Shown piece after piece: positions 20,662-56,188 of a stretch of 64,000 nucleotides of DNA. Position numbers and translations under genes: made by a program. A model generated the notes under the pieces. That model did not search any database and was not told the DNA's origin. It was given only the letters and a program-made list of their open reading frames with translations. Source of the DNA: Dehalococcoidia bacterium (GTDB lineage: Bacteria > Chloroflexota > Dehalococcoidia > Plut-88900); NCBI GenBank assembly GCA_965249275.1, contig CBDFLQ010000006.1, forward strand, positions 320,001-384,000. Reading direction: 5' to 3'. Each line of letters starts with the position of its first letter. The first letter of the stretch is position 1.

Positions 20662-20695
20662 AAGAGGGCCGGCGCCAATTGGCGCCGGCCCTCTT
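20662..20695. terminator. GC-rich hairpin, probable bidirectional terminator
   Basis: Perfect 34-bp palindrome AAGAGGGCCGGCGCCAATTGGCGCCGGCCCTCTT between convergent genes. Confidence 0.75.
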
Positions 20696-20747
20696 AGAAT
20701 CTTCTGCTTATCTTTGTTCCGTCTAGCTTAACCGGTGTACCGGCTTT

Positions 20748-22130
20748 CTAGCTTCCTACGCCCTGCTGGTATTCCAGCCAGAGATCGGTCCAATCGCTGT
20801 TCTTCTCTCCGCTGTACTGCTCGCTCTCAATGATCGCGTACGGGGCATTAGAGGGCGATGTCGGCAGGGCCGGTCGTACCGCGTCGAAGCTCGCATCATC
20901 CTGGAAGCCGGCAGCCCTTAGGTTCGTGGCCCCATAGGTGATGAACTTGGAAATGTTGGCGTTAATTTCCGGATGTCCTGTCCAGGCTATGAACAGCTGT
21001 CCAAGCTCGAACGCCTCGGGGTTGGCCTCTTTCAGACCTTTCGCCATCACGAAGATGCCCGTGCCCACCAGGTGTCCGCACTCCCAGCAGATTGCTAGGG
21101 GAGCGCCTTCTACCTGGGCATTGTAGATCCTGCCATTCCACGCAGTGCACATGTCGTTGTCGCCGGAGATTAGCAGTTGCGGGCAGTCAGAACCCGTGTG
21201 CCAGAAGTGGTTGGGAGGATTCTCTTCCCAGAGCGCCAGCGCCTCTTGTACATCCTCATCGGTCGGTGCCCCGAGCCGCGTCCTCCACTCAGAGTTTTCC
21301 AGCCTGCTGGGGTCATTGGCTAGTAAGGCCGAGAACCAACTGCCTCTGTAGGCATCCCTTACACTTCTGTTGCCAGGGTAGGTCTCCCGGTCGAAGAAGG
21401 CGTCCCAGCTGGTGATGCTGCCTTCGGGGTAGACATCCGAGTTGTATGCCAGCACCGTTGACCAGGTGATTCCGCCGCCACCGGCGTACGGGGTGTTAAC
21501 CGTCTCTAGGTGGTTGCGGTTGTCCACTACGCTTTGGTCCATCGCTTCTAGTGCGCCGATCTTGATGTGGTTCCACAGTTCCCGTCCGCCCACGTCCATC
21601 ACGTGCCACTTGTAGTTGCCCGTGTCCACCATCACCCGAATTACTGCGTACTCCATCGGGCTCTCTTCAACGATATCAATCCCGAACTTCTCGCTGAAGG
21701 GGACTACGTAAGCCTGCCGTTGGGCCGCCTGGTAGGCGCCGCCCCAAGACGTGAACACGAAGCTTGCGCCTCGGTGTTTCTCGATCTCCGCCTCCAACTC
21801 TTCCAGGGTGGCGGGGTTCTCAGGAGTCCACTCAGACGGGCCCCTCATGCTCGTGTCATCCATGGCCTCTGGCGTCGCAGTGGCTTCCGGCATCGCATCA
21901 TCAGACTCGTCCGGCATTGCCGTGGGTTCCATCGCGTCATCCGGCTCTTCGTCATCCGCCATCGCCGTGGGTTCCGGCATCGCCGTCGGTTCTTCCATTG
22001 CTTCCGGCGTCGCGGTGGCGGCTTCGCCACATGCCGCTAGCACCAATAGTGCTACTAGAAGAATGCCGACAGCTGCGAGAATCCCCCGCTGCTTCGTCAG
22101 CCTCTTCCGCCTATACTTTCCGTCTATCAT
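20748..22130 (-). CDS. PotD/PotF-like (polyamine-type) ABC solute-binding lipoprotein, copy 1
   Basis: AGGAG RBS before ATG at 22130 (the track extends to 22172); lipobox LAAC, PEPTAM linker, TSWGGAYQ, AWNGR. Confidence 0.85.
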   Translation of the reverse strand: MIDGKYRRKRLTKQRGILAAVGILLVALLVLAACGEAATATPEAMEEPTAMPEPTAMADDEEPDDAMEPTAMPDESDDAMPEATATPEAMDDTSMRGPSEWTPENPATLEELEAEIEKHRGASFVFTSWGGAYQAAQRQAYVVPFSEKFGIDIVEESPMEYAVIRVMVDTGNYKWHVMDVGGRELWNHIKIGALEAMDQSVVDNRNHLETVNTPYAGGGGITWSTVLAYNSDVYPEGSITSWDAFFDRETYPGNRSVRDAYRGSWFSALLANDPSRLENSEWRTRLGAPTDEDVQEALALWEENPPNHFWHTGSDCPQLLISGDNDMCTAWNGRIYNAQVEGAPLAICWECGHLVGTGIFVMAKGLKEANPEAFELGQLFIAWTGHPEINANISKFITYGATNLRAAGFQDDASFDAVRPALPTSPSNAPYAIIESEQYSGEKNSDWTDLWLEYQQGVGS

Positions 22131-22428
22131 AGCTGCTCCTTGACTATTTCTTTGGGCCCAGTTTTTGCTCAAGCCTGATTTGTGGTTGCAGGCCTATCAC
22201 ATAGTTCCGATCCGATATACGAATAGACTCACCTCCAAATTTCAGGCAATGCTCTTGGATTTCTTGTGGAGAATTGCGGTCACCGTTAAAACGCCGACAG
22301 TGTTCCAAGTAAGGATGCAGTAAAAGTATAACGTCGCAGATGCTCAAAGACCAACTGCGGCGTTAATCAGGTTACCAAACTTATGTGATAATTGAGAGTC
22401 ATTATATATGAGCCAAACCCCTTGTCAA
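22131..22428 (-). promoter_or_regulatory. Promoter and long structured 5' leader, copy 1
   Basis: TTGACA-N16-TATAAT (22428-22401); three sequence blocks shared with the leader at 23960-24270. Confidence 0.65.
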
Positions 22429-22550
22429 GAGTCCCAAATTCCCCTTCCCTCCGAGCGCATACCGGGCAATCACTGGGATATCTGCCTATGGCCGTACGCA
22501 CTCCGTACCGAGCAATGGAGTTACTGCATGTGAGGTTGAATAAAGCACCG

Positions 22551-22590
22551 AAAAAGTCAGAGGCCCGGCGCCAAATGGCGCCGGGCCTCT
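22551..22590 (-). terminator. Intrinsic terminator after SBP copy 2
   Basis: 15-bp stem AGAGGCCCGGCGCCA/TGGCGCCGGGCCTCT followed by GACTTTTT on the minus strand; paralogous to 20662-20695. Confidence 0.75.
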
Positions 22591-22642
22591 TCGATTCTTC
22601 CGCTTGTCTTCGTTCCGTTTGGCCATCTGGTAGACCGGCCTC

Positions 22643-23959
22643 TTAGCTATCTACACTCTGCAGGAATCCCAGCCAGAGCTCGGCCCATTGGTCGTTGTAT
22701 TCGCCCGAATGCCTCTCGTTCTCTATCACGCCGTACGACACGTTGGCTTCAGACAACGGCAGGGCAGGGCGCACCTCGTCAAATTCCGGCTCACTGAGGT
22801 ACGGAATTGACCTCAGGTTGAGAGGTCCGTAGGAGATGTACTTCGACTGTTGTGCGTTGATCTGCGGCTGTCCCGTCCATGCAATGAACAGCTGCCCATT
22901 TTCGAACGCCAACGGGTCCGCTTCCTTCAGGCCCTTGGCCATTACGAAAGCGCCGGTCCCGATCAGGTGCCCACACTCCCAGCAGATGGCAAGGGGCGCG
23001 TCTTCCTGCTTCTGTGCATCGTAGATCCTGCCATTCCACGCCGTGCAGATGTCCACCTCGCCGCTGATCAGCAGCTGTGGGCAGTCCGATCCCGTGTGCC
23101 AGAAGTGGTCGGGAGGATTCGCTTCCCAATATGCCAGCGCTTCTTGCACGTCTTCCTCGTTCGGCGCTCCCAGACGCTTCTTGAGTTCGGTATCATCGTA
23201 CCAGTCTGGATGCAGTACTGAGAGGGCCACAAACCAGCTGGCTCTGTAGGCGTCTCTCACGCTCCGGCGGCCGGGGAAGCTCTCCCTGTCGAAATAGTCC
23301 GCCCAGGTCGTGATGCTGCCCTCGGGGTAGCTGTCGGTGTTGTAGGCCAGCACAGTGGACCAGGTTATTCCGCCGCCACCACCGTATGTCGGGTTCGGGT
23401 GGTTCCTTACCGAGTCCACGTGGTTTCTAGTGTCAACCACGCTCTTGTCCAACTCTTCCAGGCTGCCAATCTTGATCTCTGCCCACAGTGCCCGTCCGCC
23501 AACGTCCATGACGTTCCATTTGTAGTTGCCGGTCTCTACCATAGCGCGGATTACCGGGTACTCCATGGGGCTCTCTTCAACTACGTCGATTCCAAACTGC
23601 TGCTCGTAAGGTTCAATGTATGCCTGGCGCTGGGCAGACTGGTAGGCGCCGCCCCACGACGTGAACACAAAGCTCTCGCCTCGGTGCTTCTCAATCTCCG
23701 CCTCCAGTTCTTCGAACGTGACAGGCTCCTCCTCAGTCCACTCTGACCGCGGTCTCAGGCCCGTGTCCGGCATCGCCGTCGGTTCGTCAGCCATCGCCGT
23801 CGGTTCCGGCATCGCTGTGGGCTCTTCCGTTGCCTCCGGCGTCGCCGTAGCAGCTTCGCCGCACGCCGCGAGGACCATCAGCGCTACTAGAAGGATACTC
23901 AGTCCGGCAAGGACTCCCCTCCGTTTCTTAAACCTCTTAATCCCATATCTCGCATTCAT
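22643..23959 (-). CDS. PotD/PotF-like ABC solute-binding lipoprotein, copy 2
   Basis: Close paralogue of 20748-22130 (shared TSWGGAYQ, HFWHTGSDCPQLLISG, ICWECGHL); lipobox LAAC. Confidence 0.88.
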   Translation of the reverse strand: MNARYGIKRFKKRRGVLAGLSILLVALMVLAACGEAATATPEATEEPTAMPEPTAMADEPTAMPDTGLRPRSEWTEEEPVTFEELEAEIEKHRGESFVFTSWGGAYQSAQRQAYIEPYEQQFGIDVVEESPMEYPVIRAMVETGNYKWNVMDVGGRALWAEIKIGSLEELDKSVVDTRNHVDSVRNHPNPTYGGGGGITWSTVLAYNTDSYPEGSITTWADYFDRESFPGRRSVRDAYRASWFVALSVLHPDWYDDTELKKRLGAPNEEDVQEALAYWEANPPDHFWHTGSDCPQLLISGEVDICTAWNGRIYDAQKQEDAPLAICWECGHLIGTGAFVMAKGLKEADPLAFENGQLFIAWTGQPQINAQQSKYISYGPLNLRSIPYLSEPEFDEVRPALPLSEANVSYGVIENERHSGEYNDQWAELWLGFLQSVDS

Positions 23960-24270
23960 GGTTATTACTCCTTGCCTATTCCTTTGGGCTTATCAACTAG
24001 CGCACATTAAATTACGTCTAAGAAACGTTACACTATTTTGCGTTCGCCTCAAGAAAAGACTCACCTCCAAAAGTCTTGCGAAACATCTGAGTACTAACAA
24101 CCCATTGCAATTTCTGCCGGAAAAGCCGCTGCCCTTTAAGGGTAAATGGGGTTATATACAGATAACGTCGCAGAAGTAAAAAAGTTACCTGCGGCGCTGG
24201 GACAGATCGCACTGGGTTATCCAGGTAATAGCGGAATTTTAGGATATAGCCGTGTCGAGCCTCTTGTCAA
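23960..24270 (-). promoter_or_regulatory. Promoter and long structured 5' leader, copy 2
   Basis: TTGACA (24270-24265)-N16-TATATC; conserved blocks at 24163-24198, 24057-24071 and the RBS region. Confidence 0.6.
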
Positions 24271-24371
24271 GGAGCACTCCGCTATAGGCAAATATAGCCC
24301 TGTGTTTGGCCCCATTGCCAATCATCTTCTTGCCCGCTTACAAGGCCAGAGTTTATATTGGCGCCGAAGAG

Positions 24372-25643
24372 ATGCCGCCACCTTTCGAAAACGGTCGTCT
24401 ACCTCAGGCCCTGGCCCGGATGAAGGTCCTTGACCTTACCCAATACGTCGCTGGGCCTTTTTGCACCAAGCTCCTCGCCGACTACGGCGCCGAAGTTCTA
24501 AAGGTAGAGAGACCGGGCCAAGGAGACCCGGGGCGAAGGCTCGGGCCTTTCCCCAACGACTCCCCCCACCCCGACACCAGCGGCCTGTTCCAACACCTGA
24601 ACGGCAACAAGCTGGGTGTCACTTTGGACTTGAAGCACACTACGGGGGTCAAGATATTCGAGGAGCTAGTCCGGTGGGCAGACGTGGTCGTCGAGAGTTT
24701 CAGGCCCGGCGTGATGGCCGGTTTTGGCCTTTCCTATTCCCGCCTGTCGGAGGTCCGCCCGGGCGTGATACTGACTTCCATCTCCAATTTCGGACAGACT
24801 GGGCCCTACAGGCACAACAAGGCCACCGAGATAATAGAGTACGCTATCGGCGGCCCGATGCTATTCACTGGCACCTCATCCCGAGAACCTTTGAAGCTCG
24901 GGGGTCGAGTGGGGATGATCTTCGCTGGTCAAGAGGCTGCTATGGCAACCCTCATGGCCTTCTACAGAAGTATGGGGCGCGAATGTGCCGGTGAACACGT
25001 CGATGTCTCGATAATGGAGACCCAGGCCGGATCCATCGATAGGCAGACCGCGCTGTTGCTCAATTATCAATACACCGGAAACAGGTTCTCCCGACTTGAT
25101 GCCTCAGAGGCGTACCTGGGGGGCGTATACCCTGCACATGACGGTAACCTGGACGTTCAGGTCATAGAGAGATTTACCCAGCTCTTAGCTGGCATCGGCC
25201 AGCCCGACACCATCACCCCATCTGAAGCTGTCGTCTTGACCCAATTTCTCGACAAATGGGAAAACGCAGATGGCAACCCGCTGGAGAGTAAAGAGCTTAT
25301 CCGTGAGCTCGGTGATATTTTGGAGGAGTGGGTCCTGGCCCGCCCCGTGGGCCCGGCCTTGGCCCAACTCCAGAGGCATGGTACTTTGTCGGCCCCCTTC
25401 TACGATGCCGCAGGTGTGCATTCTGACCCTAGTTTCAGACTGCGAGGCCTGTGGACCGCGGTCGAGAGCGCCAACTCGAGCCAAAGCAGATTCCCCGGTC
25501 GCCATACCATAATGGAGCGTACACCGTGGCAACTACGGAGGCCCGCGCCCGGACTCGGTGAGCATAATGCCCATGTCTATGGCGAGATGCTCGGATACAA
25601 CCGACGAGACCTGGCGAGGCTACGGCAGATGGGGACAATCTAG
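24372..25643 (+). CDS. Class III (CaiB/BaiF) CoA-transferase, subunit apparently lacking the catalytic Asp
   Basis: DLTQYVAGPFCTKLLADYGAEV, ESFRPG, FGQTGPY, APGLGEHN; start placed at ATG 24372 (uncertain). Confidence 0.88.
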   Translation: MPPPFENGRLPQALARMKVLDLTQYVAGPFCTKLLADYGAEVLKVERPGQGDPGRRLGPFPNDSPHPDTSGLFQHLNGNKLGVTLDLKHTTGVKIFEELVRWADVVVESFRPGVMAGFGLSYSRLSEVRPGVILTSISNFGQTGPYRHNKATEIIEYAIGGPMLFTGTSSREPLKLGGRVGMIFAGQEAAMATLMAFYRSMGRECAGEHVDVSIMETQAGSIDRQTALLLNYQYTGNRFSRLDASEAYLGGVYPAHDGNLDVQVIERFTQLLAGIGQPDTITPSEAVVLTQFLDKWENADGNPLESKELIRELGDILEEWVLARPVGPALAQLQRHGTLSAPFYDAAGVHSDPSFRLRGLWTAVESANSSQSRFPGRHTIMERTPWQLRRPAPGLGEHNAHVYGEMLGYNRRDLARLRQMGTI

Positions 25644-56113: not shown

Positions 56114-56188
56114 TGGTGAGCCGTGTGGGATTCGAACCCACGACACCCGGATTAAAAGTCCGGTGCTCTTCCGCTGAGCTAACGGCTC
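56114..56188 (-). tRNA. tRNA-Lys (anticodon TTT)
   Basis: 75-nt cloverleaf: GAGCCGT/ACGGCTC acceptor, CCGGA-CTTTTAA-TCCGG anticodon arm, GTGGG-TTCGAAT-CCCAC T arm, encoded CCA. Confidence 0.97.

Follow-up and report, generated by a model that had tools for sequence, protein, structure and literature searches.

Two tandem genes for solute-binding proteins (SBPs) in a Dehalococcoidia bacterium are each preceded by a long 5′ leader, and these leaders represent a new family of a known kind, the cis-acting 5′ leader, that is restricted to one uncultured genus. The genes lie on the minus strand of a 64,000-nucleotide (nt) stretch of contig CBDFLQ010000006.1 (positions 320,001 to 384,000; assembly GCA_965249275.1), which will be referred to as the window and whose numbering is used below. 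SBP gene A (22643–23959, ATG at 23959–23957) and SBP gene B (20748–22130, ATG at 22130–22128) encode lipoproteins of 438 and 460 amino acids (aa), both of the family SBP_bac_8 and 66% identical to each other. An initial annotation of the window had proposed that both leaders act at the RNA level. We consider a functional RNA-level element probable: conservation in 17 copies, a conserved promoter, cover in RNA libraries, a covarying helix and the absence of an Rfam match all speak for this part of the proposal, whereas most of the helices drawn by eye did not hold. As to how the element works, we tentatively favour, at somewhat less than even probability, a modular leader in which a Shine-Dalgarno (SD) mimic docks the 30S subunit in the manner of the STAB-SD element and an invariant hairpin is read by a trans-acting factor or a ligand.

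Leader A and leader B can be aligned only at the promoter and at three short blocks, the remainder being barely alignable, as the initial annotation had noted. On the minus strand, block 1 occupies 24163–24199 in leader A and 22329–22365 in leader B (motif matches at 24166–24196 and 22332–22362), block 2 occupies 24057–24071 and 22225–22239, and block 3 occupies 23968–23989 and 22136–22157. Each of them occurs exactly twice in the window. Among 100 dinucleotide shuffles, zero matches were obtained for blocks 1 and 3 and never two for block 2, which places the claimed occurrence of three blocks at matching spacing upstream of both SBP genes far beyond chance. The genome holds about 22 paralogous SBP genes, and the blocks stand only at the tandem pair. 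The pair and its leaders recur in all eight other species-level genomes of the same genus, giving 17 leaders from nine genomes. Across these 17 leaders the sequence between the blocks is saturated with changes and the three blocks are kept. The spacing from block 1 to block 2 is 102–105 nt in 13 leaders and 92–98 nt in four, and that from block 2 to the ATG is 104–110 nt in 16 of the 17. The leaders fall into five sequence classes: A, C and E stand before the upstream or sole gene (nine upstream-gene leaders), B and D before the downstream gene (eight downstream-gene leaders).

The distribution of the element is narrow. The block 1 pattern, searched with a spacer of 10–20 nt, was found in nine out of 401 genomes of the class, all in one Dehalococcoidia genus, with one or two sites per genome and every site at these SBP genes; it was absent from the 392 other genomes. 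A covariance model of the 5′ domain (R1) matched nine out of 151 genomes, likewise of one genus only, with the match in the window at 24095–24221 (344095–344221 of contig C6). On the downstream-gene leaders R1 reached 27 bits on the B-type only and found no D-type leader. A protein search of genome contigs yielded only three loci in two genomes. Scanning metagenomes with the block 1 pattern gave at least 119 loci, none of which had block 2 or block 3 downstream among the matches listed, and these were taken as chance matches. Block-like matches elsewhere in the genome lay at no rRNA or other meaningful sites, and a block 2-like site at C6:922550 before a methyltransferase-like frame was also judged to be due to chance. 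In genome G010, the stretch upstream of leader A (L030:2050–2190), just 5′ of the promoter, resembles by eye the C terminus of a transposase or integrase; on this by-eye reading the neighbourhood differs between genomes while leader and gene remain together.

In agreement with the initial annotation, which by eye had matched the leaders to none of several riboswitch and T-box consensuses, Rfam 15 gave no match in either leader at E values up to 10, none at gathering scores in the leaders when the whole window was scanned, and none at E values up to 1 in the leaders of five other loci. A T-box leader (RF00230) was detected elsewhere in the genome with 100.7 bits (L010:3042–3376, on contig C5 of the genome that carries the window, G000, downstream of the SBP paralogue at 258321–259622), and with this positive control the negative result for the SBP leaders carries weight. 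That T-box resembles the SBP leaders as a long cis-acting leader of the same genome and differs from them in that they give no T-box match at E values up to 10. A full-text literature search, judged by its result entries alone, returned no report of such a leader.

A TTGACA promoter before each SBP gene, as initially annotated, was recovered and, like the blocks, goes well beyond a chance occurrence. In leader B it matches the consensus at 12 of 12 positions (TTGACA-16-TATAAT, 22401–22428, minus strand; predicted transcription start site (TSS) near 22393), and in leader A at 10 of 12 (24241–24270, minus strand; TTGACA followed by TATATC after 16 nt or by TATCCT after 18 nt; predicted TSS near 24235). 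The −35 hexamer lies 311 nt (leader A) and 298 nt (leader B) from the ATG. The layout of TTGACA (TTGATA once) and a −10 hexamer separated by a 16-nt spacer is common to all 17 homologous leaders, nine of which have TATAAT as the −10 hexamer, and the promoter-to-ATG distance is 286–314 nt. Gene A is followed by an intrinsic terminator (22559–22590, minus strand; 14-bp stem and T tail) that sets the two transcription units apart; gene A being ended by a strong terminator, each SBP gene has its own promoter.

As a second line of evidence, contigs assembled from four RNA libraries, each of a different study, were placed on the region. One contig covers 23777–24127 and includes blocks 2 and 3 of leader A; over leader B, contigs were found at 22143–22251, at 21906–22190 and at 21774–22591, the last of which spans the whole leader and extends past its promoter. 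This cover speaks against transcription starting downstream of blocks 2 and 3. At 24172–24400 the depth was zero in all four libraries. The contig ends near 22251 and 24127 and the uncovered stretch 24172–24400 were considered as RNA ends and rejected, as contigs cannot reveal ends. The region 20700–24400 is partly present in six runs recorded as RNA, three of which are labelled sponge metagenome, and also in assemblies from several studies. It appears from these runs that the organism is sponge-associated and that both genes are represented in RNA libraries.

Block 1 forms hairpin P2. In leader A its stem is (A/G)ACGCCGCAG / CTGCGACGTT, interrupted by a C.A mismatch and closed by a variable 15-nt loop. 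Throughout the homologues the stem AACGCCGCAG/CUGCGACGUU retains the C.A mismatch described in the initial annotation (17 out of 17 copies, never repaired), and the 14 or 15 nt of the loop vary freely. Sixteen of the 17 copies have invariant arms, and the single-base changes that occur in the arms all lead to G.U pairs (A to G in G000A, C to U in G005_1 and G011B). Leader A of genome G011 (L172:2812–3119) has lost one base and carries a substitution in the 5′ arm of P2, with an uncompensated change near the 5′ end; this copy may be decaying or imperfectly assembled (contamination 11%). Applied to all 17 leaders, RNAalifold recovered the invariant block 1 stem and nothing else, since the variable parts of different classes cannot be aligned.

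Read as DNA, block 1 is an inverted repeat (AACGYCGCAG-N14/15-CTGCGRCGTT) downstream of the promoter, and a dimeric transcription factor bound there could block elongation, with blocks 2 and 3 as mere translation signals. Two invariant arms around a free spacer, with no RNA covariation, are indeed the pattern of a protein-contacted DNA site. However, the repeat is asymmetric in 17 out of 17 copies, the left arm always having C and the right arm A, and the spacer of 14 or 15 bp puts the half-site centres 24–25 bp apart, so that the helical phase changes. Relative to the predicted TSS the site starts at about +40 to +45, and its distance to the promoter and the −35 hexamer varies. Moreover, the changes in the arms are exactly those that preserve an RNA helix through G.U pairs, in nine leaders a covarying RNA helix encloses the site, and no regulator gene lies within about 5 kb. 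An operator at block 1 is therefore quite improbable.

The covarying helix, P1, belongs to the upstream-gene leaders. In leader A the 5′ domain extends over 24098–24219 (minus strand), where P1 (24219–24206 with 24111–24098) encloses P2 and a small hairpin, P3 (24151–24132). RNAalifold on the nine upstream-gene leaders predicted P1 as a helix of 10–14 bp, its 5′ strand immediately before block 1 and its 3′ strand about 55 nt after that block. Seven of its ten pairs changed on both sides, 95% of the cells were paired compared to 35–40% in slid controls, and the covariation score was reached by none of 500 shuffles. A duplex test that does not depend on the alignment gave −9.8 to −23.4 kcal/mol for cognate P1 strands (z −1.8 to −7.3 against shuffles) and mostly −5 to −8 kcal/mol for strands combined across classes, the exceptions being G007_1 with G006_1 at −19.4 kcal/mol and two combinations near −12.7 kcal/mol. 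As cognate strands pair better than most cross-class strands, three sequence versions (A, C and E) keep one helix.

The covariation expected in homologues was thus found in P1, but most of the helices seen by eye in the window failed in the orthologues. The long-range closing helix CGCTATT/AATAGTG of leader A exists in the window copy only, the eight other upstream-gene leaders reading ATCAATG, ACTACTA, ACAATTG and the like. Its proposed counterpart in leader B, TATCACATA/TATGTGATA, was recovered only in four close B-type orthologues, once with an internal mismatch, and is absent from the four D-type leaders. The multibranch helix ATAACCCCATT/AATGGGTTGT proved no better than shuffles (z −1.5 to +0.7), and its 3′ strand pairs instead upstream of block 1, in P1. 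The suggested alternative pairing AACGCCGCAG/CTGTCGGCGTT is lost in six of the eight downstream-gene leaders.

The 5′ domain might be a true riboswitch, in which the three-way junction of P1, P2 and P3 binds, as an aptamer, the compound transported or a related metabolite (an amine, a γ-aminobutyric acid (GABA)-like or an opine-like compound) and blocks 2 and 3, as the expression platform, expose or occlude the true ribosome-binding site (RBS). P1 covaries around a conserved junction and conserved stem nucleotides in the nine upstream-gene leaders, the stretch GUUAUNUGUNUAUA 3′ of P2 is conserved, a site before SBP genes is typical of riboswitches, no Rfam family matches, and the absence of a terminator would fit translational control. 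On the other hand, the eight downstream-gene leaders keep blocks 1–3 without the P1/P3 architecture, the feature common to all copies is an invariant helix, which is unusual as a ligand pocket, a conserved alternative pairing with the SD was not found in 12 leaders by the duplex test or in 17 by partition function, and the element is confined to a single genus by both the pattern and the covariance model. We therefore regard a riboswitch as rather unlikely. Since the only element of the 5′ half common to the 17 copies is an invariant hairpin, with no shared aptamer fold, a trans-acting factor fits at least as well as a metabolite pocket.

Known leaders offer parallels to both possibilities. 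Riboswitch-type leaders stand before ABC-transporter (ATP-binding cassette) binding-protein genes, such as the thiamine pyrophosphate (TPP), cobalamin and guanidine-I leaders and the potC motif. The SBP leaders share with them a long structured 5′ leader before a solute-binding protein gene, a covarying closing helix around a conserved junction and probable translational control; they differ in the lack of an Rfam match, in that helices of fixed sequence are the most conserved part, and in that half of the copies are without the junction fold. Leader hairpins recognised by proteins include the RAT hairpin of the BglG/LicT antiterminators, the PyrR sites and the ANTAR targets. Like these, P2 is a short hairpin that is fixed in sequence, includes a conserved non-canonical feature, lies early in the leader and is shared by co-regulated paralogues. 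Unlike these, it has no overlapping terminator, its sequence and loop size resemble none of them, and no candidate binding protein is encoded nearby.

Block 2 contains an SD mimic. The 3′ end of the genome's own 16S rRNA reads GAUCACCUCCUUUCU, and GGAGGUGA of block 2 pairs perfectly over 8 nt with UCACCUCC therein (−16.4 kcal/mol), so that the 8-nt anti-SD complement of the initial annotation holds against the rRNA of the organism itself. The true SD, AAGGAG (23973–23968 before gene A, 22141–22136 before gene B), pairs more weakly with the 16S tail, at −7.8 kcal/mol for gene A and −11.9 kcal/mol for gene B. Block 2 reads GGAGGU(G/A) in 15 of the 17 leaders, GGGGGUG in one and GGAUGUG in one. 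ATG, GTG or TTG codons 5–10 nt downstream of it are absent from the A, B, C and E leaders.

In the upstream-gene leaders block 2 makes up the loop and the 3′ strand of a further hairpin, P4. In leader A, P4 lies at 24044–24081 (minus strand) with an outer helix TCGC/GCGA, an inner helix AGACTT/GAGTCT and the loop TTGGAGGT (24070–24063). Classes A, C and E have the outer helix UUCGC/GCGRA (with C-G, U.G and U-A variants) and the inner helix GACUU/GAGUC; the loop is UUGGAGGU in seven of the nine leaders, CUGGAGGU in one and UUGGGGGU in one. In leader B the mimic reads TTTGGAGGTGAGTCT, and the enclosing hairpin of the upstream-gene leaders is absent.

The nearest published element is the STAB-SD of Bacillus thuringiensis cry3A (Agaisse and Lereclus 1996; Mathy et al. 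2007). As described in PMC4113751, it is SD-like in sequence, lies about 129 nt upstream, gives no translation start, binds the 16S 3′ end and blocks RNase J1. By this description, both systems have a long 5′ untranslated region with a full complement of the 16S 3′ end 100–130 nt ahead of the start codon, and here, as in cry3A, the SD-like element appears not to be coupled to a usable start codon; an RNase J is encoded here as well (TIGR00649; 571 bits, cut-off 400, in an open frame of 584 aa). The mimic of the SBP leaders differs in being placed in a conserved hairpin loop and in being accompanied by two further invariant blocks, and the element is specific to one gene family in a genus of Chloroflexi.

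Ribosomes loading at block 2 might alternatively translate a short upstream open reading frame (uORF) that stops at the TAG or TAA in block 3, which would couple SBP expression to a leader peptide. In 16 of the 17 leaders a stop codon does lie 4–6 nt before the true SD. Read upstream from this stop, the frame stays open as far as block 2, or to a point no more than about 35 nt short of it, in 12 of the 17, and the D-type leaders have an ATG in that frame. Yet no conserved start is present: by eye, the codon at the proper spacing is ATT, TTT, ATA or ACA, and the first canonical starts follow GGAGG by at least 13–16 nt or are absent. The frame is closed in five of the 17 leaders, and chance alone would leave about 25 codons open in roughly 30% of cases. 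The peptides of different classes bear no relation to one another, class C shows 10 non-synonymous and 3 synonymous changes (hand count), and the changes in the D-type leaders are compensatory for hairpin P5, described below, and not silent for the peptide. The GTG within block 2, from which the initial annotation had opened a uORF, is GTA in two of the 17 leaders, opens a frame of only three codons in two more, and overlaps the SD with zero spacing. With no conserved start or peptide in any leader uORF, the proposed uORF switch is the least probable of the readings considered here and appears most unlikely.

Real mini-ORFs do occur behind upstream SDs in other SBP paralogues, which might be counted in favour of such a switch. 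GGAGG is present at −135 to −75 in 10 of 21 upstream regions of SBP paralogues of the genome compared to 12% expected (binomial p about 1e-4, with the −135 to −75 interval chosen after the data had been seen and the paralogues not independent of one another). In at least four of these regions, and in one leader of a sister genus (G003), an AUG mini-ORF of two to three further codons follows the SD. Individual cases are G000:C7:359708, C6:761528, C5:724876, C5:721756 and C5:723325, where GGAGGTG lies about 95–115 nt upstream of the SBP start and the ATG of the mini-ORF follows 4 nt on, with three further codons and TAG (MPDT*, MGVL*, MDDP*, MDHS*); one copy has ATA for ATG. Since GGAGG recurs and the mini-ORF peptides differ, the conserved feature appears to be the upstream SD near −105 and not the peptide.

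Block 3 of leader A (GCCCAAAGGAATAGGCAAGGAG) contains the true SD at its 3′ end. Between blocks 2 and 3, 13 of the 17 leaders form hairpin P5, which shows compensatory changes within the downstream-gene leaders; in leader B it lies at 22171–22195 (minus strand; AGGCCTG ... CAGGCTT), is 98% paired and has two pairs changed on both sides. No terminator-like hairpin was found inside the leaders. Control is therefore probably exerted through translation or mRNA stability, and the attenuator of the initial annotation, in its classical form, is unlikely. A long-range helix between the 5′ segment and block 3 or the RBS was suggested by eye from apparent compensation (G004 compared to G007, G005_1 compared to G000A, and a triple change in G005_2). 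It was dropped because cognate pairs were no better than shuffled or non-cognate ones, the duplexes of the 5′ segment with the RBS giving z values of −0.9 to +1.3 in the 12 of 17 leaders tested.

For the favoured modular leader we suggest the following mode of action. In this model each SBP gene is transcribed from its own strong sigma-70-type promoter, with a 5′ leader of 260–280 nt working as RNA. The first module is the 5′ domain around P2 with its fixed 10-bp stem and C.A mismatch; in the upstream-gene leaders P2 lies within P1 alongside P3. The second is the SD mimic about 105 nt before the start codon, presented in the upstream-gene leaders in the 8-nt loop of P4; the variable hairpin P5 is the third, and block 3, directly 5′ of the weaker genuine SD, the fourth. 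The SD mimic may dock 30S subunits without initiating translation, like the STAB-SD of cry3A, and a docked 30S subunit would shield the mRNA from 5′–3′ decay by RNase J and/or keep ribosomes ready for the true start, so that an abundant binding protein would be made at a high and steady level. A trans-acting factor, either protein or RNA, would recognise the invariant P2, or P2 would form part of a sensor, allowing tuning by the substrate. Docking of 30S subunits, stabilisation of the mRNA and a factor binding to P2 are the steps that we infer.

A more specific version of this control would be a regulated STAB-SD-type switch, in which a three-way-junction sensor around the invariant C.A helix gates the ribosome-docking hairpin about 105 nt upstream and a ligand or factor decides whether 30S subunits park on the leader, where they would stabilise the mRNA and supply the true start. 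Sponge-associated Chloroflexi would then have a new riboswitch-like class; we rate this version, like the riboswitch proper, as rather unlikely.

Several observations weigh against the favoured modular leader. The confinement to one genus leaves about five classes and few independent lineages. The contigs of the RNA libraries give neither RNA ends nor strand, and DNA carry-over is possible. P1 is missing from the downstream-gene leaders (eight of the 17, including copy B of the window) and P4 from the B-type and three of the four D-type leaders, so that one common fold does not explain all copies. P2 and P4 have conservation and G.U-compatible changes only, because invariant stems give no covariation, and in leader A of G011 the 5′ arm of P2 is damaged. 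The folding energy of whole leaders is modest compared to shuffles (z +0.04 to −2.9, with 12 of the 17 leaders folded). Partition functions of the 17 leaders revealed no reproducible partner that sequesters the SD. Pairing of block 2 with block 3 (CUUUUGG:CCAAAGG) is possible at −5 to −10 kcal/mol and lacks clear covariation, one lineage speaking for it by eye and one contradicting it, and the model has no function for block 3. Finally, to our knowledge STAB-SD has been documented in Firmicutes and not in Chloroflexi.

The proteins encoded by genes A and B have GABA-, polyamine-, agropine- and mannopine-binding proteins as their nearest solved structures, and the PotD equivalog model scores far under its cut-off. 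ABC permease or ATPase genes are absent within about 5 kb of the pair, which has CoA-transferases, amidohydrolases, an SDR and a luciferase-like oxygenase as neighbours. A terminator-like hairpin 3′ of gene B (20662–20695, minus strand) was detected as a match to the terminator-like hairpin of a small RNA model. The sole Rfam match at gathering score in the window is a tRNA gene (56117–56188, minus strand). Two further SBP loci of the same genome are unusual: at G000:C7:1073442–1075868 two SBP domains share one open frame of 838 aa, apparently a tandem fusion of paralogues, and the paralogue at G000:C7:362732–363913 has one in-frame TAA within the match and may be a pseudogene or reflect a sequencing error.

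Marine and sponge-associated heterotrophs make few proteins in larger amounts than their solute-binding proteins, and the SBP leader represents a concrete and testable candidate for post-transcriptional control in uncultured Chloroflexi. With an upstream SD near −105 in half of the SBP paralogues of this genome, SD mimics may be used as docking or stabilising sites beyond Firmicutes. Binding of a metabolite by the 5′ domain, if it occurs, would give a clue to the substrate of the orphan binding proteins. If STAB-SD-type control is indeed regulated in these leaders, such control would exist outside Firmicutes, where it would act on orphan binding proteins for amine- or opine-like compounds.

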